Part shown: one piece after another, positions 2,932-40,133 of the stretch
Layout of the letters: every line of letters starts with the position of its first letter
Position numbering within the stretch: position 1 is the first letter of the stretch
From: Candidatus Bipolaricaulota bacterium
Lineage (GTDB): Bacteria; Patescibacteriota; Patescibacteriia; UBA11705; DATKZF01
Length of the DNA stretch: 40,383 nucleotides
Direction of reading: 5' to 3'
Assembly (NCBI GenBank): GCA_035528115.1
Contig: DATKZF010000001.1
Coordinates: forward strand, 226,312 to 266,694
Translations under genes and position numbers: made by a program
Notes under the pieces: model-generated
What the model was told of the DNA's origin: nothing
Seen by the model: the letters and a program-made list of their open reading frames with translations, nothing else
Databases searched by the model: none

Positions 2932-3435
2932 TTATCGTTTACTCCATTGCGGCGCTCGTCTGGCGCCCCTTAAACCGGGCTTCTTTCTTTCTTTCTTTCT
3001 CGCGTCTCTGGTCAGATAACCGGCTTTTTTCAAAGGTTTTCTGAAATTGGGATTCAATTGAATCAGGGCCTTCGAAATTCCGTGCCTGGTCGCTTCAGAC
3101 TGGCTTTTTGAGCCCCCGCCGATTACTTTAACGGAAACATCAAGCTTATCTTGCTGACCGATCAATTTCAATGGCTTAATGACGATTTCCCGCAAAGTGT
3201 CCGTAGGGAAATAAACGTTCATTTCCTTGCCGTTAACCTTAACCGCGCCCTTGCCCTTTTTATACACGCGGACTTGAGCGATTGAAGTTTTTCTTTTGCC
3301 CACCGCGTATAAATAATCTCTCTTTTTTTCAACTTCTTCTTTCTCTTCTTTTTCAACCGTTTTCTTGACCGTTTTCACCGGTTTCTTCACAGCCTTCTTG
3401 GTATCTTTTTTAATTGTGGCTTTCTTTATTGGCAT
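2932..3435 (-). CDS. rpsI: 30S ribosomal protein S9 with a Lys-rich N-terminal extension
   Basis: C-terminus is GGGSKSQSEATRHGISKALI...LTRDARKKERKKPGLRGARRAPQWSKR. The track ORF starts at a TTG (3462) that overlaps rplM, so I prefer the ATG at 3433-3435. Confidence 0.9.
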   Translation of the reverse strand: MPIKKATIKKDTKKAVKKPVKTVKKTVEKEEKEEVEKKRDYLYAVGKRKTSIAQVRVYKKGKGAVKVNGKEMNVYFPTDTLREIVIKPLKLIGQQDKLDVSVKVIGGGSKSQSEATRHGISKALIQLNPNFRKPLKKAGYLTRDARKKERKKPGLRGARRAPQWSKR

Positions 3436-3451
3436 AATTTCTTGCGCGATC

Positions 3452-3814
3452 TTATTTAACAAATCTTAATCTTTTGATCATGTTCGATCTCAATCTATTT
3501 TTCGGCAACATTCCCAAAACCGTATTTTTTAAAACTTTTTCCGGATTTTTTTTCATCAAATCGTCCAAACCATATTCTTTAAGTCCGCCCGGATAACCAG
3601 AATGATGATAATATTTTTTTTGCTCAATCTTTTTGCCCGTAAATTTCATTTTGCTAACATTGCTGATTTCGACAATATCTCCGCGGTCTTCATGAAATTG
3701 AAAATCCGTTTTATTTTTTCCTCTCAATAAAATAGCTATTTGCGACGCCAATCTGCCTAAAGCTATATCTTCGGCGTCTAATGTGTGAATTTTTCTAACC
3801 AATTCTTTTGCCAT
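3452..3814 (-). CDS. rplM: 50S ribosomal protein L13
   Basis: 120 aa. Contains LGRLASQIAILLRGKNK and YYHHSGYPGGLKE, and sits in the rplM-rpsI gene order. Confidence 0.9.
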   Translation of the reverse strand: MAKELVRKIHTLDAEDIALGRLASQIAILLRGKNKTDFQFHEDRGDIVEISNVSKMKFTGKKIEQKKYYHHSGYPGGLKEYGLDDLMKKNPEKVLKNTVLGMLPKNRLRSNMIKRLRFVK

Positions 3815-3817
3815 ATT

Positions 3818-4243
3818 TTATGCTTGCTTTACGATTTTTTTCTTAACTTCTTTCTTGGGTTCCGCAACCTTACCGGCTGCCTTTTTATTATAACCGACCA
3901 ATTCGATCATGGCCATGGGGGCCGCGTCTCCTTGCCTCGGCTTCAATTTCAAAATTCTGGTGTAACCGCCGGGTCTTTTCGCGTTTAACGGACCGACATC
4001 TTCCAATAATATTTTTACCGCTTTTTCGTCGTAATAATACGCCAACAGCAATCTTCGAATCGCGAGTGTGTTGACTTTCGCTTTGGTGATATGCTTTTCG
4101 ACAATCGGCCTCAGCGATTTGGCTTTGGCCTCGGTCGTCTTTATTTTGCCGTTTAAAATCAAATTGGTGGCCAAGCCGCGCATCAGCGCTTTTCTCGGAC
4201 CGCATTTTCTGCCCAATTTTCTACCGGTTTTTCTATGTCGCAT
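3818..4243 (-). CDS. rplQ: 50S ribosomal protein L17
   Basis: MRHRKTGRKLGRKCGPRKALMRGLATNLILNGKIKTTEAKAKSLRP is canonical L17. It follows rpoA. Confidence 0.92.
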   Translation of the reverse strand: MRHRKTGRKLGRKCGPRKALMRGLATNLILNGKIKTTEAKAKSLRPIVEKHITKAKVNTLAIRRLLLAYYYDEKAVKILLEDVGPLNAKRPGGYTRILKLKPRQGDAAPMAMIELVGYNKKAAGKVAEPKKEVKKKIVKQA

Positions 4244-6569: not shown

Positions 6570-6575
6570 AATTTT

Positions 6576-6641
6576 TCATCATTTATCACATATCATGGAG
6601 CACATATCATTTGATACATGATTCATATTCCATGTTACATG
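6576..6641. repeat. Degenerate heptamer tandem repeat, locus E1 (family WTYCATG)
   Basis: A 14-nt doublet (cacatatcatggag / cacatatcatttg) is followed by the units atacatg|attcata|ttccatg|ttacatg. It lies between the rpmJ stop and the rpsM start. Confidence 0.6.
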
Positions 6642-7765: not shown

Positions 7766-7806
7766 GGTTCCCCCCCCCTTTTTTTTGCGGCAATCAATAC
7801 CGACAA

Positions 7807-8010
7807 TAGTTGTTACGAATTACAATCTTCTGGTTGGCTTCTAAGCGGTTGTTACAAATTACATTCACTTATAGCATTATGCATAAGAAGATTGTAATTC
7901 CTACCTGCCGCCTGCCTGCCGGTCTTCGACTCCGAGCTCAGACTCGAGGAGCAGGCAGGCGTAACAGATAACCTGAAAGCTTATTAAAAGATTGTAATTC
8001 GTAACAACTA
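7807..8010. repeat. 204-bp element bounded by perfect 23-bp inverted repeats, with internal copies and a GC hairpin (MITE-like or operator array)
   Basis: L1 (7807-7829, tagttgttacgaattacaatctt) and R1 (7988-8010) are exact reverse complements. L2 (7848-7866) is a 17/19 direct copy. R2 (7887-7900) is an exact 14-nt inverted copy. An 11-bp GC stem pairs 7909-7919 with 7951-7961. Confidence 0.7.
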
Positions 8011-9822
8011 TTTTCTGCTGAAAAGTTTTTCCAGCTCCGTATAATTTATGTCAATTATGGCCGGACGGCCATGAACGCAAGTGTAATGATTTTCCAGCGC
8101 GCGAAAATTCTTGATTAAAATCTCGATTTCCTCAAAAGACAAATCATCTCCGAATTTCACGGCGGAGCGGCAAGCCATTGTGTTCAAAACTTTTCGCGCC
8201 GAATCCGAAAATTCCGAGGACACCGCCCGCTCATCGATATCCGCGAATATTTCAAAAAATATTTTTTGGATATTTTTATCTTTCAACATAGCAGGCACCG
8301 CGTTTATTTTAATCGTTTTCTCTCCAAAAATGTCTATGGAAAAACCAAACTTGGACCAAGAGTCAATCGATTGGCGAATATTATCCATGTCGATCGCGGG
8401 CAGATCAAACAGCAAAGGCAAAAGCAAACTTTGAGACTTGATTTTCTCGGTTTCGAATTCCAGTTTTATTTTTTCGAACTGAACGCGCTCCGAAACGGCG
8501 TGCTGATCCATGATTTTCACGCCCGAAGCGGATTCTATGATGATATAAGAATTTTTGATTTGGCCGATGACCTGCCAGTCATTTTCATCAATGTCAACGT
8601 CCACCAATTCTATTTTTTCTTGCAAAAACGATACCAGCTCAATATTTTCCGAAGTAAAACTTTTTTTCGCGGACTTGGGCAAAGCGTAAATGGATTGATT
8701 GAATTCCACGGCCTGTTTTACTTGAGACGCCGAGGGCGGCAAAGATATTTTTTTCTCTGATAACGCGCTTTTGATATCAATGAATCCGGAGCCACGCTCC
8801 TCCGCAGGCTTATCAAATGCCACTTGTTTAATCAAATTATTTTTGTCGAGCGTCGAGGCTATGGCTCGATAAACTCCGCGATAAACGGTCTGCGGCTCGG
8901 AAAAACGCACTTCCAGCTTTCGAGGATGAACATTGACGTCTATTTTATACGGATCGATTTTCAAATTTAAAATAAATACGGGATTGAGCTCTCTGGGCAG
9001 CAAAGTCCCATAGGCGTCTCTAACGCTTTTGGCGACGATATGTTCGGTGACCGGTCTTTTATTGACGAACAAATATTGGTGTCGGCGATGAGGCAAGGCG
9101 GCTTGAGGCTTGCCGATGTAGCCGAGACATTCCATGTCCAACAAATTAACTCTGACTCCAAGTAAATCCGCGGCCAAATTATCGCCCAACAACAATTCTA
9201 TGCGATCGAGCCACTTTTCCGTCTTGGGCAAATGATACGCGACCTTACCGTTATTGATCAATTTCCAAGAAACTTTACCGTGAATCAGCGCGAAGCGAGT
9301 GAATAATTCCAAAATATGATTAAATTCGGTGTTGACCGTTTTCAAATATTTTTTTCTGGCCGGCACATTGTAAAACAACTCTTCAACAAAGACCGAGGTG
9401 CCGTGAGGACAGCCGACCGAAGAAACAATTATTTGACCGGTCGAGTTGGAAATTTTCGAGCCGGAAATCGAATCCGAATCTTTGGTTTGCAAAGTGAATT
9501 TGCCGACCGCGGCCACGGAAGCCAAAGCTTCCCCCCGAAAACCGAAAGAATTGATATTGAACAAATCATCGATGTTTTTCAATTTGCTGGTGGCGTGCTG
9601 CAAAACGCATAACTTCGCCTCTTCCTCGGACATGCCATGTCCGTTGTCCGAGACTTTGATCAAATTCAAGCCGCCATTTTTTATTTCAATTTCAATCTGG
9701 TCAGCTCCGGCGTCCAGGCTGTTTTCCACCAATTCTTTAACGACCGAAGCGGGCCGCTCAACGACCTCTCCGGCCGCGATTTGGTTGATGATTTCTTGAG
9801 GTAATACTTTAATATTTCCCAT
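8008..9822 (-). CDS. mutL: DNA mismatch repair protein MutL
   Basis: 604 aa. GHKL ATPase N-terminus (IAAGEVVERPASVVKELVENSLDAGA, DNGHGM) and a C-terminal dimerisation domain. Confidence 0.92.
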   Translation of the reverse strand: MGNIKVLPQEIINQIAAGEVVERPASVVKELVENSLDAGADQIEIEIKNGGLNLIKVSDNGHGMSEEEAKLCVLQHATSKLKNIDDLFNINSFGFRGEALASVAAVGKFTLQTKDSDSISGSKISNSTGQIIVSSVGCPHGTSVFVEELFYNVPARKKYLKTVNTEFNHILELFTRFALIHGKVSWKLINNGKVAYHLPKTEKWLDRIELLLGDNLAADLLGVRVNLLDMECLGYIGKPQAALPHRRHQYLFVNKRPVTEHIVAKSVRDAYGTLLPRELNPVFILNLKIDPYKIDVNVHPRKLEVRFSEPQTVYRGVYRAIASTLDKNNLIKQVAFDKPAEERGSGFIDIKSALSEKKISLPPSASQVKQAVEFNQSIYALPKSAKKSFTSENIELVSFLQEKIELVDVDIDENDWQVIGQIKNSYIIIESASGVKIMDQHAVSERVQFEKIKLEFETEKIKSQSLLLPLLFDLPAIDMDNIRQSIDSWSKFGFSIDIFGEKTIKINAVPAMLKDKNIQKIFFEIFADIDERAVSSEFSDSARKVLNTMACRSAVKFGDDLSFEEIEILIKNFRALENHYTCVHGRPAIIDINYTELEKLFSRK

Positions 9823-9866
9823 AGTCTCATCACTTTATCATAAAATTTTCAAAATGCAAAAATTTT

Positions 9867-9899
9867 AAAAAAAATAACGCTTTCCGATGTAGGAAAGCG
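9867..9899 (-). terminator. Rho-independent terminator of the structured RNA
   Basis: 8-bp stem CGCTTTCC/GGAAAGCG (9878-9885 / 9892-9899), followed on the minus strand by TTATTTTTTTT. Confidence 0.7.
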
Positions 9900-10268
9900 A
9901 TTTGGAAGTCGGGTGGACAACGCACGGAGTCAAAATAAGTCCCGCGGGCCATGAAGTTTCCGCCCCATAAAGGTAATAGACGGGGCGATCAAGGAGCCCG
10001 CGAAAAACGAAACTTCAAAGAACCCTGTAGAAAGGAAACCGCTTATGGTGTTTTATGACAGCTGGAACGCATCGCTCGGATCAGCCTTTTAGGGCGCGGT
10101 GATCCTTTTGAGCGAAAGTTTCCCGCCTTAGTCAACCTTTCCACAGGAACTGTTTTCAAGAGAATCCCGCGAGTATGCAACCACTCTCACTTGCCACACG
10201 ATGGTGGTTGAGTCCGCGCAGACTCTAAAGTAGTTGGTTGAGCGATGCAGGGGCTCGCGGGAAACTGA
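9867..10268 (-). ncRNA. Unclassified large GC-rich structured RNA candidate (about 400 nt)
   Basis: No ORF of 60 aa or more. It has its own consensus promoter and terminator on the minus strand. There are many long-range complementary segments, for example CCUGUGGAAAGG/CCUUUCUACAGG, GCAUCGCUC/GAGCGAUGC, CCCGCGAG/CUCGCGGG and GAAGUUUC/GAAACUUC, the last with a pseudoknot-like CGCGGGC/GCCCGCG. Confidence 0.55.
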
Positions 10269-10272
10269 AGCC

Positions 10273-10301
10273 AATATAGTAATTTCTTTTGATTCTGTCA
10301 A
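10273..10301 (-). promoter_or_regulatory. Consensus sigma70 promoter for the structured RNA
   Basis: On the minus strand: TTGACA (10296-10301), a 17-nt spacer, then TATATT (10273-10278). Confidence 0.65.
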
Positions 10302-10345
10302 GGGCTAAAATGCGTTTTTATATTATTTTAACCTAAAATTAAACA

Positions 10346-10447
10346 AAAAAACGGGACGCGATCATGCGCGCGCGCATGATGTAGAGACGCGCCGCGGCGC
10401 GTCTCTACGCGCGGCGCCGTACGGCGCCGCGCCGCGTCCCGTTTTTT
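10346..10447. terminator. Compound GC-rich palindrome block (15-bp outer stem enclosing three perfect palindromes) downstream of mutS
   Basis: Outer stem is aaaaaacgggacgcg / cgcgtcccgtttttt. The inner perfect palindromes are 10361-10380 (20 nt), 10381-10408 (28 nt) and 10409-10432 (24 nt), with no spacer nucleotides between them. There are T-runs on both strands. It overlaps the mutS stop codon. Confidence 0.65.
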
Positions 10448-13001
10448 ATTTCAATTTTTTCTTTAATTCAACCAATACCTGCAACGCCTCAATCGGCGTC
10501 AAATTGTCCAAATCGATTTCTTTTATTTCTTTTTCGATTTTCGATTCTACCGCCGTCGAATTAAACAACTCTCCTTGCGCCGCATTGGACGCCACGTCCA
10601 CTTCCCTATCCTTTTCGAGTTTATGCAAAACCTCATTGGCGCGATCCGTTATTTCAACGGGCAATCCGGCCAATTTCGCCACCTCAATGCCGTAACTTTT
10701 ATTGACCCCGCCTTTTAAAACTTTTCTTAAAAAAATAACTCTGCCGTTGTCTTCGGTGACCGCGACGGAATAATTTTGCGCTTTTTTCAAACCTTCAACC
10801 AATTCAATCAATTCATGATAATGCGTGGCGAACAAAGTGAACGCTCCCACGTTATTATGAATATATTCCACGATCGCCCAAGCAATACCCACTCCGTCGT
10901 ACGTTGAAGTGCCGCGACCCAGCTCGTCCAAAATTATCAAACTGTTTTTCGTGGCGTTATTTAAAATATTGGCGGCCTCTTCCATTTCCACCATGAAGGT
11001 GGATCGGCCGCGAACCAAATTATCCGCGGCGCCCACTCTGGTAAAGATGCGATCGACCGCGCCGATTGTCGCGCTCTCAGCCGGCACGAAAGAGCCGATT
11101 TGCGCCAACAAAACGATCAAAGCCGTTTGCCGCAAAAAGCTGGATTTGCCGCTCATGTTCGGCCCGGTCAACAAAATGAATTCATGAGTCTCATGATCCA
11201 AAAAAACGTCATTGGGCACGAACGCGTCGGAAACGAATTTTTCAATCACCGGATGGCGGCCGTTTTTTATTTCAATGAATTTTTTCGAAGACATCTCCGG
11301 CCGGACATAATTTTCAGCCGCGGCCAAAACGGCCAAGCCGAGCAAGACGTCAAGAACGGCCACGCAAACCGCGGTTTTTTGAATTTCAGAAAAATATTTA
11401 ATCGCTTCATCTCTGGCCTCTAAAAAAATATCATATTCCATCTTTTTTATTTTCTCTTCCGCTCCCAAAACTTTTTCTTCGTATTCCTTCAGCTCCGGAG
11501 TGATATAGCGCTCGGAATTCACCAGCGTCTGCTTTCGAATGTAATCGTCCGGAACCGACGCTTGATTGGCCTTACTGACTTCAATGAAATATCCGAAAAC
11601 ATGATTGTATTTTATTTTCAGCGTCCTGATGCCCGTTTTCTCCGCCTCTTTTTGCTGAAGCCGTCCGATCCAATCCTTGGCATTGGTTGAAATCGAACGC
11701 AATTCGTCCAATTCTTTATTAAACCCTTCTTTAATCATTCCACCTTCGGTAATTATGGCCGGCGGCTCTTCAATGAAAACTTTATCCAAAAAAAGAACCA
11801 GATCCGTATGCTCTGAAGCGTTTTCATAAATTTCCGACAGCAGTTCCGATTTGCAATCCGCCAAAGACTGCTTCAATTTGGGAATTTGGCGCAAGCTGTT
11901 TTTCAGCGCCACCAAATCTCTGGCAGTGGCGCGCCGGCAGCCGATTCTGCCCAAGAGCCGCTCGATGTCAGCCACGTTTTTCAGGGTCTCAGCCAGTCTT
12001 TTTTGTTTGGAAATGTCTTTGACCATTTCTTCAACTGAAAAATGACGTCGCTCGATTTCGTTTTTTTTCAGCAACGGATATCGTAGCCACGACCTTAGCA
12101 TTCTGCCGCCCATGGCCGTTTGCGTGCGATCGATCACGGACAACAAATCTCCGCCTTGTTCGAAATCAACTGCCCGGCCGAAAATCTCCAAATTTCTGAT
12201 GGTGGCTTCATCCAAGACCATGCGGTCTTTGAAATTGTAAAGCGTGATTTTGGTGATATGTTCCAAATTCGTTTTCTGGGTTTCAATCAAATATCCGAGC
12301 AAATTCGCGGCCGCCGCGACGCCGACTTTCAAAAATCCGATGCCGAAACTATCCAGACTTTGAATCTTAAAATGCTTTTTGAGAAATTCCGCCGGATCTT
12401 CATAATTGGGAATCTGAAACGGATTGACCGTTTTCAATTTGGAAATCAGCCGCTGGTGATCGGAATTGTTGTAAACGCTCGGCGAGACAATGGCTTCGGA
12501 TGGCGACAGCCTGAACAATTCATTTTCCACCAAATCCGAATCGTCGAATTCGCCGACTTTGAATTCGCCCGTGGTCAGATCGCAAATGGCCAGCCCCCAT
12601 TTTCGCGCCGAATAAACCAAAGCGACCAAGTAGTTATTTGATTTATTATCCAAAATATTATTGTCGAGCGTGGTGCCCGGCGTGACAATCCTAACCACTT
12701 GCCTTTTGACAATGCCCGGCAAGGATGGGTCTGACAGCTGTTCGCAGATGGCCACTTTTTTGCCGGCTTTGGTCAATTTCGACAAATAGCCGTCGAGAGC
12801 GTGATACGGCACGCCGCACATGGGCGTTTCATTATCCGTGCCTTTGTTTCTGGCGGTCAAGGTGATATTTAAAATTTTCGAAGCTTCAATGGCGTCCGGT
12901 CCGAACATTTCGTAAAAATCGCCCAGCCGAAAAAACAAAATCGCGTCTTCGTGTTTTTTCTTGATGTCATTGTATTGTTTTAGCATTGGAGTTTCAGGCA
13001 T
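10446..13001 (-). CDS. mutS: DNA mismatch repair protein MutS
   Basis: Begins MPETPMLKQYNDIKKKHEDAILFFRLGDFYEMF. Walker A is GPNMSGKSSFLRQ. The track start at 13022 lies inside the heptamer repeat, so I prefer the ATG at 12999-13001. Confidence 0.92.
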   Translation of the reverse strand: MPETPMLKQYNDIKKKHEDAILFFRLGDFYEMFGPDAIEASKILNITLTARNKGTDNETPMCGVPYHALDGYLSKLTKAGKKVAICEQLSDPSLPGIVKRQVVRIVTPGTTLDNNILDNKSNNYLVALVYSARKWGLAICDLTTGEFKVGEFDDSDLVENELFRLSPSEAIVSPSVYNNSDHQRLISKLKTVNPFQIPNYEDPAEFLKKHFKIQSLDSFGIGFLKVGVAAAANLLGYLIETQKTNLEHITKITLYNFKDRMVLDEATIRNLEIFGRAVDFEQGGDLLSVIDRTQTAMGGRMLRSWLRYPLLKKNEIERRHFSVEEMVKDISKQKRLAETLKNVADIERLLGRIGCRRATARDLVALKNSLRQIPKLKQSLADCKSELLSEIYENASEHTDLVLFLDKVFIEEPPAIITEGGMIKEGFNKELDELRSISTNAKDWIGRLQQKEAEKTGIRTLKIKYNHVFGYFIEVSKANQASVPDDYIRKQTLVNSERYITPELKEYEEKVLGAEEKIKKMEYDIFLEARDEAIKYFSEIQKTAVCVAVLDVLLGLAVLAAAENYVRPEMSSKKFIEIKNGRHPVIEKFVSDAFVPNDVFLDHETHEFILLTGPNMSGKSSFLRQTALIVLLAQIGSFVPAESATIGAVDRIFTRVGAADNLVRGRSTFMVEMEEAANILNNATKNSLIILDELGRGTSTYDGVGIAWAIVEYIHNNVGAFTLFATHYHELIELVEGLKKAQNYSVAVTEDNGRVIFLRKVLKGGVNKSYGIEVAKLAGLPVEITDRANEVLHKLEKDREVDVASNAAQGELFNSTAVESKIEKEIKEIDLDNLTPIEALQVLVELKKKLK

Positions 13002-13005
13002 ACGG

Positions 13006-13093
13006 CATGAATCATGGAACATGGAGCATGGAACATAACAATATTAAGTTGATCCATGATCTATGATATGTGATACGTGATATGTGATCCATG
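13006..13093. repeat. Heptamer repeat locus E2: two opposed arrays
   Basis: Block a (13006-13036) is catgaat|catggaa|catggag|catggaa|cat. After a 15-nt spacer, block b (13052-13093) is atccatg|atctatg|atatgtg|atacgtg|atatgtg|atccatg. Confidence 0.65.
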
Positions 13094-13119
13094 ATTAAAC
13101 ATCTTATCAAATTATTTCA

Positions 13120-15066: not shown

Positions 15067-15094
15067 TTTCATGCTACATGTTTCATGTTCCATG
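15067..15094. repeat. Heptamer repeat locus E3
   Basis: tttcatg|ctacatg|tttcatg|ttccatg, abutting the alaS stop codon. It shares the 15-mer tcatgttccatgatt with E4. Confidence 0.6.
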
Positions 15095-15095
15095 A

Positions 15096-16892
15096 TTATT
15101 CCAGCACCGCCTTAATCCTCCTCACCCCGGCCGAACTCGATTCTTCTTTTTTAATTCTGAACTTGCCCAGCTCGCCCGTATGCGTCACATGCGGGCCTCC
15201 GCAGATTTCGCGGGAGAAAATATCATCGCCTTCGCCAACCGTGTACACTTTCACTTTCTCCCCGTACTTTGATTCAAAAACTCCCATGGCTCCGATTTTT
15301 TTCGCTTCATCCAAAGTAATTTCTTCGCATGACACCGGATAATCTTTTTCAATCGCTTCATTGACGTTTTTTTCAACCTCGGCCTTTTGCTCATCAGTCA
15401 TTTTTTCATTATGCGAAAAATCAAATCTCAATCGCTCGGGAGTGATATTGGAACCTTTTTGAAACACTTCATTGCCCAAAACTTTTCGCAAGGCGGCCAG
15501 CATCAAGTGCGCGGCCGTGTGCAGGCGCTTGGTTTCTTCGGACGCGTCGGCCAAACCGCCTTTGAACCTGCCGGCTGACGCGGTTTTTGATAATTCCTGA
15601 TGTTTTTTGAATTCTTCGGCGAATTCTTTTTCATCTATTTCAATGCCGATTTCTTTGGCCATTTCGCTAGTCATTTCCAAGGGAAAGCCATATGTTGAAA
15701 ATAAAATGAAAGCTTCTTTGCCGGAAATATTTTTATCCTTGGCCATTTTGGAAAATTCCCGTTCGCCTTTTTCCAAAGTCATTCGAAACTTTTCTTCTTC
15801 TTTTTTAAGTTCATCGAAAATCTCCGCTTCCCTATTTTTCAATTCAACGTAAGGATCGGAGATCAAATCAACAACCACGCTCGCCACCTCGGCCGTGAAA
15901 TTTCGCTCAATGCCCAGCTGTTTGGCTTGACGAATAGCTCGCCTAATCAATCTTCGCAAAATATAACCTTGATCGACGTTGGACGGCGCCACGGCGTGGT
16001 CATCGCCCAAAATCATGACCGAGGCTTTAAGGTGATCAGCAATGATTCTCATCGAAACGGTTATCTTTTCGCTCTCATCATATTTTTTCCCTGACAATGC
16101 TTCAATTTTTTCAATGATCGGCCAAAAAAGTTCTGTTCGATAATTATCGTCAAAACCGTTCATCACGGCCAAAGTTCGCTCCAGCCCCATGCCGGTGTCA
16201 ACGTTCTTTTGAATCAATTGCTCGTAATTTCCATCAGCGGTTTTATTGTATTGCATGAAAACATCATTCCAGATTTCCACCCAATTTTTCTCGTCGGTTT
16301 GAGGATTGCTGTCCTTTGACGGATTGCCCTCGCCGATGAAATAAAACATTTCCGTGTCAGGACCGCACGGACCTGTCTCGCCTGCCGGTCCCCACCAATT
16401 GTCTTTTTTCCCCAAAAAAACTATTTTGTGGTCTGCTAAGCCCAAATTTTTCCAAACGCCGGCGGACTCATCGTCTTTGGGAGAGTTATCGTCGCCTTCA
16501 AAGCAAGTGATTGCCAATTTTTCAAGCGGCAAGCCCAGCCATTTTTTATCAGTTAAAAATTCAAAGCTCCATTCGATCGCTTCTTTTTTAAAATAATCGC
16601 CGAGCGACCAATTGCCGAGCATTTCAAAAAAAGTGTGGTGAAACGCGTCGCCGACTTCGTCGATATCGTCGGTTCTGACGCATTTTTGAAAATCAACCAG
16701 ACGCTGGCCCTGCGCGTGAGATTCGCCCATCAAATAAGGTACAAGCGGGTGCATGCCGGCCGTGGTGAATAAAACGGTCGGGTCGTTTTCCGGGATCAGC
16801 GAAGCTGAAGCGACTTGTTTGTGGCCTTTACTGACGAAAAATTCAATGTATTTTCGCCTGAGTTCTGAAGCTGTGATTTTATTCATATTCAT
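15096..16892 (-). CDS. alaS: Alanine--tRNA ligase, short form ending at the editing domain (no C-Ala domain)
   Basis: Begins MNMNKITASELRRKYIEFFVSKGH. Editing-domain motifs HTAAHLMLAAL and CGGPHV are present. It ends at GVRRIKAVLE. The track start is a TTG at 16940. Confidence 0.9.
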   Translation of the reverse strand: MNMNKITASELRRKYIEFFVSKGHKQVASASLIPENDPTVLFTTAGMHPLVPYLMGESHAQGQRLVDFQKCVRTDDIDEVGDAFHHTFFEMLGNWSLGDYFKKEAIEWSFEFLTDKKWLGLPLEKLAITCFEGDDNSPKDDESAGVWKNLGLADHKIVFLGKKDNWWGPAGETGPCGPDTEMFYFIGEGNPSKDSNPQTDEKNWVEIWNDVFMQYNKTADGNYEQLIQKNVDTGMGLERTLAVMNGFDDNYRTELFWPIIEKIEALSGKKYDESEKITVSMRIIADHLKASVMILGDDHAVAPSNVDQGYILRRLIRRAIRQAKQLGIERNFTAEVASVVVDLISDPYVELKNREAEIFDELKKEEEKFRMTLEKGEREFSKMAKDKNISGKEAFILFSTYGFPLEMTSEMAKEIGIEIDEKEFAEEFKKHQELSKTASAGRFKGGLADASEETKRLHTAAHLMLAALRKVLGNEVFQKGSNITPERLRFDFSHNEKMTDEQKAEVEKNVNEAIEKDYPVSCEEITLDEAKKIGAMGVFESKYGEKVKVYTVGEGDDIFSREICGGPHVTHTGELGKFRIKKEESSSAGVRRIKAVLE

Positions 16893-28055: not shown

Positions 28056-28069
28056 ATTTTACCTTTTTG

Positions 28070-28118
28070 ATTCATGTTCCATGATTTATGTTTCATGATT
28101 CATGATACGTGATACATG
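28070..28118. repeat. Heptamer repeat locus E4 (7 units)
   Basis: attcatg|ttccatg|atttatg|tttcatg|attcatg|atacgtg|atacatg. It starts 15 nt upstream of the recJ start codon. Confidence 0.65.
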
Positions 28119-28136
28119 AATATTAACCATTTTACT

Positions 28137-30154: not shown

Positions 30155-30289
30155 ATATATAAACAAAGATTGAATGAATTTTAACACAATTTCCTATAAA
30201 AAACAAGGATGAAAAACCTGCCAATCAATTATTTAAAAAAAATTAAAGGCCCATTGATGTGATCGCCGGGCCGGGTGATGGTTCAGTCG

Positions 30290-30586
30290 CTATAGAAATA
30301 TTCCTGAACAATCCTCGCGCTCCATCAGATGGTCAATGTTCAGAAGACCCTTGCGGGTTACGAAGGTTCCTCCGGTATCTCCGGGTCTGTGCGGGAAGCA
30401 CAGAGAGAAGTTGAACACCTCCCTTTTTTTGCCGTAAAAATGACCTCCACTGATTTCGAACTCTCCGTTGAAACTCTTCGCCTTGTCTTCGAAGACAAGT
30501 CTGACAGGCTGTCCGTCGAATATGGCCAGTATCATGTCCCATCGGCCCGGACCGTTCACAATCTCCAGCGTGTTTTTGGGAGTCAT
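30290..30586 (-). CDS. Hypothetical protein, GC-rich island 3 (98 aa)
   Basis: ATG start preceded by GGAGG with a 6-nt spacer. I recognise no family. Confidence 0.5.
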   Translation of the reverse strand: MTPKNTLEIVNGPGRWDMILAIFDGQPVRLVFEDKAKSFNGEFEISGGHFYGKKREVFNFSLCFPHRPGDTGGTFVTRKGLLNIDHLMEREDCSGIFL

Positions 30587-30707
30587 CCGACGCCTCCTTG
30601 AATCAGCGGTTTCTTTATTGAGGCAGAAACCCGAGCCCCCTTATCCTTTGAGGACGACCTACCCATCCGAGGGAGTTCTCCCAAGCGGGATGACGCGGCC
30701 TGCTTGA

Positions 30708-31058
30708 TTACAGCCGCGAATTGCCGTGCCGATCAGGCTCCAACGCCTCTTTGACCGAACAGTAGCCGTCAGCGACCAGCTCCGACAGCAGGAGCTCACG
30801 CTCGCCCCCGATTTCCCCCTCGAAAAACATATGGCTGACCGGCCGACCATCATCTTCGAGAAGCTGGATCACGGGATCGGATGCTTCCGGATCTTTCACC
30901 TGGACGCATCTGCTCCAACATCTTTCGCCCACGCAGATGATGGGCGGACTATGCCCGCAGAAAGAAAGCACTGCCCTAAAATCGCAGTGCGCGATCTTCT
31001 GGGCGACATTCCAATGCCTGCCAAAGATGGCCTCATCCGATCTGGCTTGTTCACTCAT
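30708..31058 (-). CDS. Hypothetical Cys/His-containing protein, GC-rich island 3 (116 aa)
   Basis: The ATG overlaps the recombinase TGA (ATGA). Contains HCDF...FCGHSPPIICVGERCWSRC. I recognise no family. Confidence 0.45.
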   Translation of the reverse strand: MSEQARSDEAIFGRHWNVAQKIAHCDFRAVLSFCGHSPPIICVGERCWSRCVQVKDPEASDPVIQLLEDDGRPVSHMFFEGEIGGERELLLSELVADGYCSVKEALEPDRHGNSRL

Positions 31059-31888
31059 TTTTCCCCTCCTGAAGTGGGATTGCTATTGCCAAGGCCAGTC
31101 CACTGCGGGGATGTCACTTGAGTGTAAATCTGAGTGGTGCGAATATTCTGATGTCCCGAAAGCTCCTGGACATAGCGAATACTGACTCCGTTTTCGAGTA
31201 AATGGGTGGCAAAGCTGTGGCGGAGCGAATGAAAAGTGGCGTCTTTTTTTATATTCGTTTTCTTTAACGCTTTTTCAAATATCAGCTGGGCCGTTCGAGA
31301 AGTCAACTTCCCTCCCCTCTCGCTTTCAAAAACCAATTCGTCTTTGCCTTTGCCGGCGATCAAATTCAGTAGGTCATTTTTTAATTTTTCCGGAAAAATG
31401 GTCAGGCGATCTTTTCCGCCTTTAGCTTTTTTAACGTGAATGAATAATTGATTCAGATCCAAATCCTTAACCTTCAAATTTATCACCTCGCTCACTCGAA
31501 GGCCGGCGCCGTAAGCGATAGAAACCAATAATTTGTGTTTTTGATTATTGATGGTGTTCATTAACTCGGAAATTTCGGAGCGAGACAGAACCACGGGCAA
31601 TTTTTTCGATCTTTTGGCGAATTTGATATCTATTTTTTGATCTGACTTGATTACCTCATGATAAAAATATTTGATGGAATTCAAATATAGATTCACGGTT
31701 TGCGAAGAAAACCCTTTATCATATTTTTTTAACAAAAATTCCTTAATGGATTGAATATCAAGTTGTTCAAAATCAAGCTTCTTGTAATTGAAATAATCTC
31801 GCAGGCATAAAAGATAGCTTTTGGTTGTTTTAGGACTGTAATTGCGCAATCGCAATTCAATCTTCACCGCGTCCAAATATTTTTGCAT
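31055..31888 (-). CDS. Tyrosine site-specific recombinase, compact Xer-like (277 aa)
   Basis: SAM-like N-terminal domain (RLRNYSPKTTKSYLLCLRDYF). Catalytic motifs are AGLRVSE, KGGKDR, HSLRHSFATHLL and GHQNIRTTQIYTQV. The last 18 codons lie in GC-rich DNA. Confidence 0.88.
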   Translation of the reverse strand: MQKYLDAVKIELRLRNYSPKTTKSYLLCLRDYFNYKKLDFEQLDIQSIKEFLLKKYDKGFSSQTVNLYLNSIKYFYHEVIKSDQKIDIKFAKRSKKLPVVLSRSEISELMNTINNQKHKLLVSIAYGAGLRVSEVINLKVKDLDLNQLFIHVKKAKGGKDRLTIFPEKLKNDLLNLIAGKGKDELVFESERGGKLTSRTAQLIFEKALKKTNIKKDATFHSLRHSFATHLLENGVSIRYVQELSGHQNIRTTQIYTQVTSPQWTGLGNSNPTSGGEK

Positions 31889-31944
31889 AAATTGAGATTT
31901 TTTGATAAAATTATATCCGGAACATAGAATAAATTTATCATAAA

Positions 31945-32007
31945 TTCACATAACAAACAAAATCGGACGCATTATGCGAAATGTTTTCGCATAGAAACCA
32001 GTTAGGC
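31945..32007 (+). other. Primary (attI-like) recombination site A
   Basis: TTCACATAAC box (31945-31954), a small hairpin ATGCGAAA-tgt-TTTCGCAT, then AGAAACCA-GTTAGGC (32001-32007, which matches GTTRRRY). Confidence 0.5.
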
Positions 32008-32041
32008 AAAATGTGGCACAAATTTTTTAACTTTAATTCAC

Positions 32042-32482
32042 ATGAGTATGTCAATTGAACATCGAGAGAATCCTCCACAGAGAGAGCTAATAGTAACAAC
32101 TGTCGATTTATCCAAAGGCTGGGATACCGAATCCATGCGCGATATTCTAATCGAACGGCTAAAAGAGCTTGGTATCTATCAGCCAAACCTGCTTTTTAGA
32201 GGTTTTGATGGTAATAAAATAGAAGTTATCAAACAACATGGGACAGACATTCCTGATGATACAGTTATTTTTTGCTCTACCGAAGGCCAACTTGTTGATG
32301 AATATGCAATGGAAGAATCAGCACTAGATTTTTCTTTAGGACAAGAAAAAGCAGGTTTGGCTGTATACGATGGGGCCAGACTCTTTAAAGATAGTAGTAA
32401 ATATGGTTCAGGATATGAATACCAACCAAAAAAGGGAACCAGTTTTAAGGAGGCTCTTTTAGCCGTTCTGATTTTGGAGTAA
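32042..32482 (+). CDS. Hypothetical protein, cassette 1 (146 aa)
   Basis: ORF with an ATG start. The stop abuts site B. I recognise no family. Confidence 0.55.
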   Translation: MSMSIEHRENPPQRELIVTTVDLSKGWDTESMRDILIERLKELGIYQPNLLFRGFDGNKIEVIKQHGTDIPDDTVIFCSTEGQLVDEYAMEESALDFSLGQEKAGLAVYDGARLFKDSSKYGSGYEYQPKKGTSFKEALLAVLILE

Positions 32483-32647
32483 AATTTGTGCCACACATCG
32501 CCTAACACGCAGTATGCGACTACGTTTTGCTCCGTTTCACTCCGCAAAACTCCGTCCATGTTTGCCCGTGGTAAGCTCCCGCTGGTCGCAAATTTTACCA
32601 CGGGCAAACATCGCATACTGCGAAACGTTATGTGAAATGCATGTTTT
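32481..32647 (+). other. attC/dif-like folded site B (end of cassette 1 / start of cassette 2)
   Basis: GCCTAAC (32500-32506). A 12-bp stem pairs 32508-32519 with 32611-32622. Internal hairpins are at 32524-32550 and 32558-32611 (17 bp). It ends CGAAAC-GTTATGTGAAAT (32621-32638). Confidence 0.6.
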
Positions 32648-32804
32648 ACTTTTGGGCTATCGCCCAGCTCTAAAAAAGAATTTGAATTTTGTTTTTTTAT
32701 TTATTAGAAAGGGGTATAAGGTTTTTTCTCCGCTCCGCTACGAAAACGATTTATTTATAAGGGGAAAACGAATACAATAACATTGCTTAACATGAAAAGA
32801 ATTT

Positions 32805-34613
32805 ATGCCAAAAATTAAGGATATACCAAAAATTGATCGCCCAAGAGAAAGGTTTCTAAAAAAAGGGGCTGACGCACTTTCAAAAAGTGATCTTTTGGCA
32901 ATTCTTTTGGGTAGCGGAATTAAGGGGAAAAATGTTAGGCAGCTTTCTGAGAATATCATTAAAAAATTTGGTAAAAACTTTTTGAATATAACCGTTGATG
33001 ATCTTTTGGAAATTTCAGGAATCGGACAAGCAAAAGCATTGCAAATCACTTCCGCGATTTCATTGGTAAAAAGATTTTACGACGAAAACAAAACCAACGA
33101 GATTGTTATAAAAAATTCTCAAGATATTTTATCCCTTACTTACGATTTAAGAGACAAGAAAAAAGAACATTTAGTTTGTCTTTATTTAAACGCACGAAAT
33201 ATTTTGTTGAGAAAAGAAGTTGTTAGTGTCGGTCTTTTAGATAAGGCATTATTACATCCGAGAGAAATTTTTTATCCTGCAACCGAGCTAAACGCCGCCA
33301 GCGTTATTTTGGTTCACAATCACCCTTCAGGCGATTCTTCACCAAGTGAAAAAGACAATCAAATTATTGAAAAAATCGTGCAGGCTGGCGAAATAATGGG
33401 GATACCAGTCATTGATTTTATTATTATTTCTCAAAACAATCATTGCAGTTTCTACGAGAAGTTAAATAAGCAAAAATCAAGTATCGATTATGTTGCAGAC
33501 GGAATACAAGGAACTCTTTTTGCGATGCTTGAAACTGAGCGACCAACCTATGAAATAACCGCCGAAAAAATCCAAGAAAATTATTTTTATATCCCACAAG
33601 TAAAAGAAAACCATCTTCAATTACACAATCGCAGATATATTGGCAACAAACACAAGTTAATTGAATGGATTTTTTCTATAATAAATAAAGAATGCAGTGG
33701 AAATTCTTTTGCGGATATTTTTGCAGGAACGGGTGTTGTATCCGCTGTTGCAACCAAACACTTCGAAAAAGTTTTATTAAACGACTTTCTCCATTCAAAT
33801 TACGCAATATATCGGGCTTTTTTTGGAAACGAGGCATGGGATAAAGTCAAAATCGATAACATTATTAAGAATTATAACAATATTTATGGCGATGACTTAG
33901 AAGAAAATTATTTTTCTAAAAATTTCGGTGGTAAATTTTTTAGTAAAAATTCAGCGAAAATCATCGGCTTTATTCGTGAAAATATAGAGGAAAACAGGAA
34001 AAACTTAACCGAAAGAGAATACTATATGTTGATCGCCTCATTGCTTTATACTGCCGATAAAATCGCCAACACAGTTGGACATTTTGACGCTTATTTCAAG
34101 AAGGAATTTGTAAATGATAGCTTTTTTATGAAACCGATTGATCCGATAGATACGCAAGAAATATCAATTTTTCAAGAAGATACAAACAATCTGGCAAAAA
34201 AAATAAATGCCGATGTCGTTTATATCGACCCACCCTACAACTCAAGACAATACAGCAGATTCTACCATGTGCTTGAAACATTAACTAAGTGGGATAAACC
34301 AATACTTTTTGGCGTAGCACTAAAACCAGAGCCAGAGAATATGAGCGACTACTGCCGAGCTAATGCCAAAGATAAATTTGCGGAACTCGTGAAAGACCTT
34401 GACGCTAAATATTTGGTTGTTTCATACAATAACACTTACGATTCAAAAAGTAATTCCTCAAAAAACAAAATCACGCTCCAAGAGATTGAACAGATTTTGC
34501 AGACAAAAGGACCAACCAAAGTTTTTGAAAAAAAATATAGACATTTTAATGCAGGCAATACAAATTTCAATAATCACAAGGAATACCTGTTTGTAACAAA
34601 ATCAAAGATATGA
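32805..34613 (+). CDS. Fusion protein: RadC-like JAB/MPN domain + N6-adenine DNA methyltransferase (D12/Dam class, M.FokI-like)
   Basis: Residues 1 to about 225 are RadC-like (DRPRERFLKKGADALSKSDLLAILLGSG, VHNHPSGDSSPSEKD). Residues from about 260 to 602 are methyltransferase (RYIGNKHKL, FADIFAGTGVV, VYIDPPYNSRQY). Confidence 0.8.
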   Translation: MPKIKDIPKIDRPRERFLKKGADALSKSDLLAILLGSGIKGKNVRQLSENIIKKFGKNFLNITVDDLLEISGIGQAKALQITSAISLVKRFYDENKTNEIVIKNSQDILSLTYDLRDKKKEHLVCLYLNARNILLRKEVVSVGLLDKALLHPREIFYPATELNAASVILVHNHPSGDSSPSEKDNQIIEKIVQAGEIMGIPVIDFIIISQNNHCSFYEKLNKQKSSIDYVADGIQGTLFAMLETERPTYEITAEKIQENYFYIPQVKENHLQLHNRRYIGNKHKLIEWIFSIINKECSGNSFADIFAGTGVVSAVATKHFEKVLLNDFLHSNYAIYRAFFGNEAWDKVKIDNIIKNYNNIYGDDLEENYFSKNFGGKFFSKNSAKIIGFIRENIEENRKNLTEREYYMLIASLLYTADKIANTVGHFDAYFKKEFVNDSFFMKPIDPIDTQEISIFQEDTNNLAKKINADVVYIDPPYNSRQYSRFYHVLETLTKWDKPILFGVALKPEPENMSDYCRANAKDKFAELVKDLDAKYLVVSYNNTYDSKSNSSKNKITLQEIEQILQTKGPTKVFEKKYRHFNAGNTNFNNHKEYLFVTKSKI

Positions 34614-35515
34614 CTACCAAGATAAGAAGATCCCCATTATTTTATGTCGGGGATAAATACAAACTGATGAAACAACTGGAAAATTTATTTCCTAAAGAAA
34701 TAAATAATTTTTACGAACCTTTTGTCGGCGGAGGTACGGTATTTTTGAATATTGAAGCAAAAAAGTATTTTCTCAATGACATAGACAAACACCTGATAAA
34801 TATTCAAAAACTTTTAATCGCCAGTTCAAAAAATCCAGAAAAGTTTTTCAAGGATGCCGAAAAAATAATCCACAAATATAAATTTTCGCATTCATATAAA
34901 AATGATATTGTCCCCGATTCGTTAAAAAAGGAGTTTAAAAAAACCTATTACGCAAGATTTAATAAGGAAGGTTACGATAAATTAAGAATGAGCGTAAATA
35001 ATTATCAAAAAAACGACCCCTTGATTTTATACATTTTGCTTATTTATGGATTTAATAGAATGTTAAGATTCAATGGCGGAGGAAAATTTAATTTACCTGT
35101 TGGCAATGTTGATTTTAATAAAAATGTTATAAACGCCTTAAACGGCTACTTTGATTTTGTACAAAATAAAAAAATATCTATAACATCAAAAGATTTTAAA
35201 AAGTTTTTTTCTGACAAAAAATATTCAAAAAACGATTTTGTATATTTAGACCCTCCATACTTAATATCCGCAAGCGAATATAATAAATTATGGAACAAGG
35301 AATTAGAAGCTGATTTATTAAAAATGATCGATGTCTTAGACAAAAAAGGCGTTAAATTTGCCTTATCAAATGTTACTCACTATAACGGGAGTAAAAATGA
35401 TTTATTATTGGAATGGATGAAAAAATACAAGGTACACAAAATTGAAAGCAATTATATTAATTATCATAACAACGGCAAAAAGATAATTAAAGAAGTTTTG
35501 ATTACTAACTATTAA
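34610..35515 (+). CDS. N6-adenine DNA methyltransferase (Dam/D12 class)
   Basis: 301 aa. Contains YVGDKYKL, EPFVGGGTVFLN and VYLDPPYLIS. An ATGA overlap couples it to the upstream methyltransferase. Confidence 0.85.
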   Translation: MTTKIRRSPLFYVGDKYKLMKQLENLFPKEINNFYEPFVGGGTVFLNIEAKKYFLNDIDKHLINIQKLLIASSKNPEKFFKDAEKIIHKYKFSHSYKNDIVPDSLKKEFKKTYYARFNKEGYDKLRMSVNNYQKNDPLILYILLIYGFNRMLRFNGGGKFNLPVGNVDFNKNVINALNGYFDFVQNKKISITSKDFKKFFSDKKYSKNDFVYLDPPYLISASEYNKLWNKELEADLLKMIDVLDKKGVKFALSNVTHYNGSKNDLLLEWMKKYKVHKIESNYINYHNNGKKIIKEVLITNY

Positions 35516-35519
35516 AATT

Positions 35520-37037
35520 ATGACTAAACGACAATCTGAATACAAACCATTGCTATTTACAACAACAATGAGAAATCCTGAACGGTTGAAGGATTTTTTG
35601 ACCGTACTTGCGGAATATGACGGCGAAATTTTAACAAACGAAATTATTGATAAAGTCGCCAAATCCTTAATACAAAAAGGATTATACCAGCCCATGAAAG
35701 TATCTTCGGCCGTAAAAGATAAATGGAAAAATGAGATTGAATTAAGCGAAACTGAAACCGAAAAAGTATTTTCTGACAACCCTCAAAGCCACAAAGAAGC
35801 AGGGTTTGAAAAAGGATGGCCATCAAGATTCGATACTTGGTTTAAAATTGCCAAAGAACTTGGCTTCGTTTGGTATTGGCAAAATGAAGAAATAAAATTT
35901 TCCGAAAGCGGAAATATGTTATTAGACAAAGAAAAGCCAGAAAATGAGTTAATGGTTTTTGCCAATGCTTTTGCGAAATATCAACGCCAAAATCCATTTC
36001 GTCGCGTTTTAAATAAAAATGTTCCGCTTATTTTACTTATACAAACCATAAAACTTTTGAATAATGACCCAGCATACAAGGGGGCTGGTATATCCAGATC
36101 GGAAATACCATTGTTGTTGTGTTGGAAAAACGATAATGCTGAAAGTTTATATCGAGAAATTAAAAAATTACGCAAAAAACATGGTTATACACCGAGCAAC
36201 GAAGTGATTTTAGATATTTGCTACGAATTACTAAACGAAACAAAGAGAGATGATAATTCAATCCTCGGTGATTATCCTGACGATTTTATACGAAAAATGC
36301 GTTTAACTGGCTTACTTTCTTTGCGTGGCGGTGGTCGTTTCATAGATATAAACTCAAAAGAATCTGCAACTGTGGATTATATTTTGAAAAATTATATTTC
36401 CTACAAAGAATTTGAAACGGAAAAAGAATTTTTTGAATATATCGGACAAGTTGATCACGATTTAATCTCAACGCTTACCGTATTTGAAGCACCAGCAAAA
36501 ACCACAAAAGCAGAATTGGAAAAATGGGTTGATCATTATGCTTGGGATTCAATTAAAACCGAACTTCTTAATTTGGCACAGAAAAAATCTTCTAGCGATG
36601 ATATTTTGAAAATCATTGAACAACCTTTGCGATTGGAATTTTTAACTTCATTGGCAATTCTCAAAAAATTACCGAATGTTATTGTAAAACCTAACTTTAT
36701 ATCCGATGACGAAGGACTGCCAACAAGTTTTGCGTCTGGCGGAAGCCCTGACATTGAATGTTTAGAAGAAAAAGACACGGTTTTGATCGAAGTAACTTTA
36801 CTGACTGGAACGCAACAGCATATCAGAGAGTCGTTTTCTATACATCGACACCTTGAAGAATATGTAAAAAAAGGCACAAAATCATATTCCGTGTTTATCT
36901 CGCCAAAATCTTTTATTGATACCGAACGCTACTTTGATTTTATCAAAAAGGATGGTTTGGAAGTGAGGATCTCAAATATTGATAAATTTGTTAATAGCCT
37001 TGAAATGAAAACGACATTAAGCGAGGCAACCCTTTAA
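35520..37037 (+). CDS. AlwI-family (type IIS-like) restriction endonuclease
   Basis: 505 aa. The N-terminus LLFTTTMRNPERLKDFL, RKMRLTGLLSLRGGGRFIDIN and GGSPDIECLEEKDTVLIEVTLLTGTQQ resemble AlwI/N.BstNBI-family blocks (PD...EVT) as I recall them. Confidence 0.7.
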   Translation: MTKRQSEYKPLLFTTTMRNPERLKDFLTVLAEYDGEILTNEIIDKVAKSLIQKGLYQPMKVSSAVKDKWKNEIELSETETEKVFSDNPQSHKEAGFEKGWPSRFDTWFKIAKELGFVWYWQNEEIKFSESGNMLLDKEKPENELMVFANAFAKYQRQNPFRRVLNKNVPLILLIQTIKLLNNDPAYKGAGISRSEIPLLLCWKNDNAESLYREIKKLRKKHGYTPSNEVILDICYELLNETKRDDNSILGDYPDDFIRKMRLTGLLSLRGGGRFIDINSKESATVDYILKNYISYKEFETEKEFFEYIGQVDHDLISTLTVFEAPAKTTKAELEKWVDHYAWDSIKTELLNLAQKKSSSDDILKIIEQPLRLEFLTSLAILKKLPNVIVKPNFISDDEGLPTSFASGGSPDIECLEEKDTVLIEVTLLTGTQQHIRESFSIHRHLEEYVKKGTKSYSVFISPKSFIDTERYFDFIKKDGLEVRISNIDKFVNSLEMKTTLSEATL

Positions 37038-37049
37038 TTATTATTACCT

Positions 37050-39951: not shown

Positions 39952-39957
39952 ACAAAT

Positions 39958-40010
39958 AAAAGGCAAAAATTCCCTCCCCTTAAACCCCTTCCTTTTTGCC
40001 TTTTATTTGA
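39958..40010 (+). terminator. Rho-independent terminator after the HerA gene
   Basis: 12-bp stem AAAAGGCAAAAA/TTTTTGCCTTTT with a 23-nt C-rich loop, followed by a T-run. Confidence 0.65.
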
Positions 40011-40023
40011 AGAGAATAAGGAG

Positions 40024-40072: not shown

Positions 40073-40133
40073 CAAAAAAAACAAAATTCAAATTCTTTTT
40101 TAGAGCAATCCCGATTGCTATCGGGATTAAAGT

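Follow-up and report, generated by a model that had tools for sequence, protein, structure and literature searches.

What occupies the space between mutS and mutL in a bacterium whose genome has little room to spare? In the window analyzed here, a 40,383-nt stretch of contig DATKZF010000001.1 (assembly GCA_035528115.1, Candidatus Bipolaricaulota bacterium), the minus-strand open reading frames (ORFs) at 8008-9822 and 10446-13022 encode MutL and MutS, each with its full set of Pfam domains, and the gap between them measures 623 nt. A first-pass annotation, made from the letters alone, had proposed that this gap holds an unclassified structured RNA gene of ~400 nt. Our analysis supports that proposal, because of the transcription signals in the sequence, fold statistics that favor the sense strand, the lack of any Rfam, tRNA or transfer-messenger RNA (tmRNA) match, and the conservation of one domain (D3) and of the transcription unit in related genomes. 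The region running from ~10266 to 9867 on the minus strand is probably a real, independently transcribed and modular noncoding RNA gene, and we consider it likely that its product belongs to a lineage-restricted family of modular structured RNAs located in the mutS-mutL gap of a small clade of Patescibacteria. This mutS-mutL RNA seems to represent a new RNA class of narrow distribution. Patescibacteria, or candidate phyla radiation (CPR), account for a large part of bacterial diversity and have tiny genomes with little spare DNA; to our knowledge, almost nothing has been reported about their noncoding RNAs.

The signals that delimit the gene in the window are strong. Read along the minus strand, the gap consists of a palindromic element, an AT-rich spacer, a promoter, the ~400-nt RNA, a terminator and a promoter-like element for mutL, whose start codon lies at 9822. 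The promoter scores 11/12, which is the joint best value in the 40 kb and is reached by five sites overall, two others of which lie directly upstream of infA and rpoA, and it predicts an RNA start at ~10266-10268. The terminator consists of an 8-bp, GC-rich stem (9899-9878 on the minus strand) followed by a U-tract reaching to 9867, and it ranks second in strength within the first 20 kb of the window. Between 9867 and 10268 there is no ORF that reaches 60 amino acids (aa); the longest that overlap this region have 57, 45, 40 and 35 aa. The G+C content of the RNA (0.506) is far above that of the intergenic DNA (0.20 and 0.275 in the flanking spacers) and modestly above that of coding DNA (0.44-0.46 in mutL/mutS), the whole window standing at 0.414. 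The first-pass annotation was therefore right about the consensus promoter and terminator on the minus strand, the absence of a substantial ORF and the elevated G+C.

The same arrangement is found in related genomes. The window sequence is present, identical, in three soil metagenomes, and its MutL places the organism in Patescibacteria, with Falkowbacteria and Parcubacteria as named neighbors at 45-48% identity; closer MutL proteins, at 61-64% identity, form only four protein clusters among 5.8 billion. These relatives represent five lineages, namely L004 (= L005, L006), L007 (= L008, L009), L010 (overlapped by L011), L012 and L013, and in all five the mutS-mutL gap is free of genes, its length being 450 nt in L013, 818 in L012, 1151 in L010, 1935 in L004 and at least 1053 in L007. 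Each gap contains one or two units extending from a TTGACA-17-TATRMT promoter to a strong terminator, followed by the mutL promoter-like element. A noncoding unit with promoter and terminator on the gene strand is thereby found in the window, L004, L007, L010, L012 and L013, and it is on these six lineages that the RNA family rests. The transcribed parts of the relatives' gaps are mosaics that differ in module content. Farther away, in Falkowbacteria (L014-L017, 46-48% MutL identity), the gap holds two or three protein genes of 145-308 aa, for which we found no Pfam assignment, and in the Omnitrophota-like L001 and L002, retrieved by a MutL scan of a genome collection (36-38% identity), mutS and mutL abut with no gap. 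Across the phylum, the mutS-mutL site is an island of variable content.

Within this variable island, we found that D3, the last domain before the terminator in the window RNA, is shared between lineages. A covariance model derived solely from the window copy detects it in L012 (55 bits, E = 2e-13), L013 (52 bits) and L010 (32 bits, E = 9e-7), in each case right after the promoter, and reverse nhmmer searches recover the window D3. Its sequence is ~75% identical across lineages, in which the MutL proteins share only 61-64% identity and the rest of the spacer is unalignable. All 16 modelled pairs are kept in the four sequences, with one compensatory C-G/U-A pair and two one-sided changes, and sliding the pairing partners lowers pairing to 35-53%. 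A CCYGCGGGC/GCCCGCRGG stem around a GCCCC/GGGGC hairpin is present in the window, L010, L012 and L013, and GGAA stands directly 3′ of the hairpin in three lineages, as GGAAAC in the window and L012/L013 and as GGAACU in L010. The hairpin loops measure 13, 13 and 21 nt, an 8-nt difference between orthologs, and a coding function is therefore ruled out. An expanded form in L004 and L007 is weakly matched by the D3 model; judged by these matches, D3 in its plain or expanded form appears to be an element common to all lineages.

The fold statistics also set the region apart from chance. Compared with 500 dinucleotide shuffles, it contains five maximal perfect complementary segments of at least 8 nt (1.16 ± 1.08 in shuffled sequences, a count of five being reached in 2/500) and four of at least 9 nt (0.31 in shuffled sequences, four being reached in 0/500). 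The minimum free energy of the RNA is -146 kcal/mol (z = -4.9). On the sense strand the window folds with a z of -5.3, compared with -2.8 for the antisense, and the sense strand is the more stable one in six of the seven transcripts tested from the window and the related loci, unit 2 of L004 being a tie; such an advantage is expected when G-U pairs are selected in RNA.

The first-pass annotation had listed eight distant pairings, all of which are present at unique coordinates. Five have an ensemble pair probability of ~1, namely the closing stems of domains D1 and D2, GGAUCA/UGAUCC, CGCGGGC/GCCCGCG and CGCCCC/GGGGCG. Two others, GCAUCGCUC/GAGCGAUGC and CAACCAC/GUGGUUG, face competition from a local helix of D1 that is more stable; the arrangement with these two, a 9-bp D1-D2 pairing combined with the CAACCAC hairpin, has zero ensemble probability and costs 17 kcal/mol when forced in a nested fold, and these two long-range pairings are probably wrong. 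The eighth, GAAGUUUC/GAAACUUC, can form solely as a pseudoknot atop the CGCGGGC/GCCCGCG stem. Its core, GUUUC/GAAAC, is invariant, with the linkers out of register between sequences, and an H-type pseudoknot between D3 and the upstream linker is a possible conformation.

The window RNA is predicted to be a chain of three separately stem-closed domains, D1, D2 and D3, joined by linkers, and not one globular fold (Table 1). The interior of D1 comprises a long helix, UGCAUCGCUC/GAGAGUG-GUUGCA, and two small hairpins. D2 shares with a domain of L004 and L007 (domain c) the junction and 5′ third, a GGAUSAUCC hairpin and the 3′ end GGUUUC(C)UUUC, and on this resemblance we regard the two as homologs; their closing stems differ by a compensatory change at one position, U-A in the window and C-G in L004 and L007. 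The D3 hairpin pairs CGCCCCG (9987-9981) with UGGGGCG (9967-9961) around a variable loop. A second-round D3 model (R2) matches D1 (18.8 bits, E ~0.007), as well as domain b of L004 (16.2 bits, E ~0.04), which has a D3-like closing stem and a GCCCC/GGGGC hairpin around a 77-nt insertion. These matches are suggestive only of D1 and domain b being diverged paralogs of D3.

What recurs from domain to domain is the linker. A motif of the form ..UUGAA..CAGUUYC stands ahead of each closing stem, in three copies in the window and three in L004, with the consensus UUCUUUGAA..ACAGUUYC just 5′ of closing stems of the form CCYGCGG/CCGCRGG. The copy in the 5′ leader of the window likewise has counterparts preceding domains in L004 (three copies), L007 and L010. 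In L004 the linker repeats are spaced 175 and 157 nt apart, and two of the copies are 94% identical over 32 nt. Sequence constraint appears to be strongest on the closing stems and the single-stranded linkers; inside the domains, D3 excepted, the sequence is freer.

Table 1. Coordinates of the predicted elements of the window RNA, of its immediate surroundings and of the B domain in related lineages
Feature	Position	Strand	Description
Boundary element, outside the RNA	10336..10440		GC-rich multi-hairpin palindromic element after mutS
Sigma-70-type promoter	10273..10301	-	TTGACA (10301-10296), 17-nt spacer, TATATT (10278-10273)
5′ leader	10262..10272	-	GGCUUCAGUUU; first copy of the linker motif (..CAGUUUC, the last C being the first base of D1)
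Domain D1	10166..10261	-	Closed by CCCGCGAG/CUCGCGGG; pair probability of closing stem 1.00
Linker 1	10148..10165	-	AUUCUCUUGAAAACAGUU; predicted single-stranded, U-rich, conserved motif; compare AUUUCUUUACAAUACAGUU in L004/L007
Domain D2	10024..10147	-	Closed by the 12-bp stem CCUGUGGAAAGG/CCUUUCUACAGG (one G-U pair); contains the GGAUCA/UGAUCC hairpin
Linker 2	10005..10023	-	GUUCUUUGAAGUUUCGUUU; holds GAAGUUUC (10016-10009), possible 5′ strand of a pseudoknot with GAAACUUC (9960-9953)
Domain D3, conserved core	9941..10004	-	Closing stem UUCGCGGGC (10004-9996)/GCCCGCGGG (9949-9941)
3′ tail	9900..9940	-	Predicted unstructured (fold prediction)
Intrinsic terminator	9867..9899	-	CGCUUUCC-loop-GGAAAGCG, then UUAUUUUUUUU; pair probability 0.99
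Promoter-like element for mutL, separate, outside the RNA	9832..9859	-	TTGCAT, spacer, extended -10 TGATAAAGT
B domain	L004:2951-3390, 3415-3835; L007:215-585, 605-1015; L010:3320-3830; L012:3375-3845		

The RNAs of the relatives contain a further, larger domain, B (~300-400 nt), found twice each in L004 and L007 and also in L010 and L012; L004 and L007 have a second complete promoter-B-terminator unit. The motifs of B include GGGGCUUYUGGCAG, AGAUACCAGAG and GUAAAAUUCAGA, and the domain has no match in Rfam. In its first helix, H1, double changes are seen at five of the eight pairs and not one pair is broken in the six sequences, and by eye the next two helices co-vary as well, together with a pairing between the loop and the 3′ side (CUUGGCA/UGCCAAG) that amounts to a pseudoknot. 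We conclude from the B covariation that selection acts on the structure of RNAs encoded at this locus.

The comparison of close relatives illustrates how fast modules change. L012 and L013 have identical MutL and flanks that are 99% identical, and carry after D3 alternative inserts of ~420 and ~55 nt, the former (L012:3380-3800) with the B domain and the latter (L013:3748-3810) with a small hairpin, in what looks like a strain-level cassette replacement. Domains b and c occur in swapped order in L004 and L007. Such module differences point to recombination at the repeated linkers, the near-identical junction repeats being an obvious substrate for unequal recombination.

Based on this anatomy, the explanation that we favor is that the RNA would accumulate as a stable trans-acting molecule in which the conserved linkers serve as functional sites, either for protein binding, in the manner of a sponge or scaffold such as CsrB or CrcZ, or for cleavage that releases the domains. 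The family would gain, lose and reorder its modules via recombination at the repeated junctions between linker and closing stem. The finding that linkers and closing stems are the most constrained parts fits repeated sites shown to a protein or a nuclease; the sponge-or-processing mechanism as such is put forward as a tentative proposal.

Several observations weigh against this explanation and have to be set beside it. RNA-seq look-ups for the RNA and for the neighboring ribosomal-protein operon listed no run. Conservation and covariation in relatives were among the grounds on which the first-pass annotation would have had the gene judged: the former is present for D3 in three lineages, and the latter, beyond the one compensatory pair, is not statistically significant for the window domains, 104 of 500 shuffle controls reaching the D3 score, with three to five distinct homologs available per domain. 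Pattern scans of viral and metagenome contigs for D3 (GATCGCCCC..GGGGCGGAA, with or without CCCGC) and for the D2 junction gave chance matches only (21, 7 and 56), all within GC-rich or unrelated coding DNA. Covariation is best in the B domain, which nhmmer did not detect in the window and which is absent from L013 too. The proposed paralogy of D1 and of domain b with D3 relies on E values of ~0.007-0.04 whose calibration is rough, and a likely spurious match in lepA scores similarly. Finally, all modules other than D3 and its relatives are missing from one lineage or another, and the rapid turnover of modules could also be compatible with weak constraint.

The junctions and their turnover could be read in another way, as a recombining cassette array whose primary transcript is cut at the ~32-nt conserved junctions into unit RNAs with common handles or ends, the modules possibly being exchanged under conflict-type selection (phage defense, antitoxin, decoys), in a noncoding counterpart of pre-crRNA or ToxI processing. 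The junction is indeed 94-97% conserved while the interiors diverge, the unit period is 115-175 nt, and both the swapped order of b and c and the alternative inserts beside identical MutL proteins would be natural outcomes of cassette exchange. The units are neither identical nor uniform in length, however, and modules b, c and D3 are conserved across lineages, unlike spacers; the three linker copies of L004, 157-175 nt apart, bound units conserved between lineages, which is not CRISPR-like. The neighborhood likewise argues against such an array, as the flanks are mutS, mutL and ribosomal-protein genes, with no nuclease, cas, toxN or defense gene adjacent. We found no direct-repeat family in the window region and no cas genes in the 40 kb, and no endoribonuclease toxin gene directly downstream, the downstream gene being a complete MutL. 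Of the ~36-nt tandem repeats of type III antitoxins there was no sign, Tandem Repeats Finder giving only low-complexity A/T and CGCGC runs. Blastn against phage and plasmid collections returned no match. We consider the cassette array unlikely.

Slightly less probable still is that the region is nonfunctional or selfish DNA, made up of palindromic elements resembling miniature inverted-repeat transposable elements (MITEs) or repetitive extragenic palindromes (REPs), or of decayed genes at a site that tolerates insertions, with a promoter that is there by chance. The gap varies across Patescibacteria, containing protein genes, nothing or RNA; its content turns over fast, the closing stems resemble terminal inverted repeats, and a true dispersed GC-rich palindromic repeat adjoins the RNA. 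The RNA itself behaves differently: the region 9860-10330 shows flat single-copy depth in the three metagenomes, with no other contig matching at 85% identity or more, and no second copy of any of its modules was found in the 40-kb window. Near-consensus promoters and strong terminators are kept in 6/6 lineages, and the closing stems carry compensatory substitutions and G-U pairs. These compensatory changes, together with the better folding of the sense strand, fit selection on RNA and not DNA repeats.

The palindromic repeat that adjoins the RNA (Table 1) has an outer stem, GGGACGCG/CGCGTCCC, around three hairpins, one of which is GTAGAGACGCG..CGCGTCTCTAC. It shows approximately six-fold depth and contig breaks in the three soil metagenomes, which identifies it as a dispersed REP-like repeat. 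It doubles as the terminator of mutS. Analogous elements occur in the relatives: in L010 the RNA locus lies between two 109-nt copies that are 100% identical, L004 has two diverged copies, and L012/L013 have only a bare outer stem.

We further considered that the RNA might be a cis-regulatory leader of mutL, a riboswitch or attenuator that would let transcription pass the terminator at 9899-9878 under certain conditions. It shares its strand with mutL, which follows directly downstream, and the compact, pseudoknot-capable D3 sits 40 nt upstream of the terminator, as an aptamer might. Between the terminator and the mutL start, however, the mutL promoter-like element is retained in every lineage, and with 89-93% identity over 28-41 nt among the window, L004, L007, L012 and L013 it is the best-conserved stretch of the entire intergenic region. 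The palindromic repeat element intervenes in L004 and L010, L004 and L007 contain two complete units, and several hundred nucleotides separate D3 from the terminator in L010 and L012. No known riboswitch aptamer class has an Rfam match here. Since mutL keeps its own promoter, and since a repeat element or a second RNA unit intervenes in some lineages, a cis role for mutL is very improbable.

As to known RNAs, no Rfam 15 model reaches its gathering score anywhere in the window, which keeps the RNA outside the known families. A permissive scan of the region (E ≤ 10) gave noise, with RNaseP_arch (9.6 bits, on the wrong strand) as the sole RNase P entry, and on the intergenic regions of the relatives both gathering and permissive scans gave nothing or noise, such as miRNA models on palindromes. 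The OLE, GOLLD, ROOL, HEARO, raiA and 6S models matched neither the window nor the relatives at gathering or permissive E. ARAGORN found no tRNA or tmRNA in the window, L004, L007, L010, L012 or L013, and we found neither a tRNA-like domain (acceptor and T arm) nor a tag reading frame. The RNase P motif CR-I (GAGGAAAGUCC) is absent from the sequence, with no partner for a P4 pseudoknot, and the nearest approach to the core motif GGAAAGUCC is GGAAAGGUU at 10142-10134, inside the D2 closing stem. Exposed GGA loop motifs of the Csr/Rsm type were not found when the sequence was read against the fold, the GGA triplets lying within helices. Literature searches did not turn up an account of any RNA of this kind. 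The size, the housekeeping neighborhood and the strong promoter might suggest a highly divergent housekeeping RNA (RNase P RNA, tmRNA, 6S or signal recognition particle (SRP) RNA), but this is hardly credible in the face of these searches and of the RNA content of the locus, which varies among close relatives and is present in duplicate in some of them, as would not be expected of a single essential RNA. Of the two possibilities left by the first-pass annotation, a divergent RNase P RNA or tmRNA and a different large RNA, it is the second that our results favor.

Other features of the window lie apart from the RNA. Arrays of CATGAWY-type heptamers (e.g., TGATCCATGATCTATGATATGTGATACGTGATATGTGA) occur on both strands in several intergenic regions (13006-13102, 28068-28126, 6571-6610 and 15071-15097) and may be arrays of regulator binding sites. 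The spacer that follows the mutL stop (7766-8007) has 39-nt inverted repeats (7802-7840 and 7977-8015, 85% complementary) surrounding a GC-rich palindrome, GCCTGCCTGC..GCAGGCAGGC. Positions 31055-40254 form a probable mobile defense island, with genes for a tyrosine integrase, a RadC-JAB domain fused to a D12 adenine methyltransferase, a second D12 methyltransferase, an AlwI-family restriction endonuclease, a SIR2-domain protein and a HerA/DUF87 ATPase; it is bracketed by repeats (32603-32698 and 40075-40254) that include a 32-nt perfectly complementary pair, and gene orientation switches there. Two candidates were rejected. The 520-nt segment after lepA (30188-30707, 49% G+C) is not a second RNA, as it contains a small ORF, an unlisted one of ~95 aa at ~30290-30590 on the minus strand behind an AAGGAGG ribosome-binding site. 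An origin of replication at the RNA was likewise discarded, as the genes from 0.7 to 31.9 kb all lie on one strand, with no strand switch near ~10 kb.

That strongly promoted, folded RNAs of 400-1900 nt stand in a housekeeping region of a reduced genome suggests that they earn their keep. They would offer new folds for structural study, in the pseudoknot-capable D3 domain and in the large B domain of the relatives with its loop-to-3′ pseudoknot, as well as an unusual evolutionary pattern, in which closely related lineages differ by the duplication, exchange and changed order of separately closed domains joined by a repeated linker. Should the linkers prove to be processing or protein-binding sites, the family would represent a new type of RNA organization, and otherwise a new class of orphan RNA. 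Were the cassette array true instead, an episymbiont with a reduced genome would have, for RNA modules, the equivalent of an integron or CRISPR array, possibly employed in conflict with phages or hosts, and the locus would reveal a novel means by which bacteria keep a stock of functional RNAs and reshuffle it.

How does this RNA compare with known systems? RNase P RNA and tmRNA resemble it in length, in having a strong promoter and in their housekeeping neighborhood; unlike them, the window RNA has no same-strand model match, tRNA-like domain, tag ORF or conserved-core motif. With ToxI and pre-crRNA it shares a promoter, repeated junctions bounding units, a terminator and a variable unit content, D3 also being capable of forming a pseudoknot, but the units of the window family are 115-175 nt long, structured and conserved between lineages, and neither toxN nor cas genes are adjacent. 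CsrB/RsmZ and CrcZ are strongly expressed stand-alone RNAs whose stem-loops display a short, conserved, unpaired motif several times over, in a copy number that varies by species, and the window RNA is predicted to do likewise; its motif, UUCUUUGAA..ACAGUUYC, is in contrast neither GGA nor A-rich, and its intervening domains are far larger. Like the window RNA, the ornate orphan RNAs (ROOL, GOLLD, OLE and raiA) are several hundred nucleotides long and multidomain, exceed the local intergenic DNA in G+C content, come with a promoter and a terminator of their own, occur in a narrow phylogenetic range and lack an assigned function, and it was by similar signals that they were first noticed. They differ from it in that each has one fixed conserved architecture, whereas the mutS-mutL RNAs appear to be built from separately closed domains, linked by a recurring junction, that vary in number, order and identity between close relatives.

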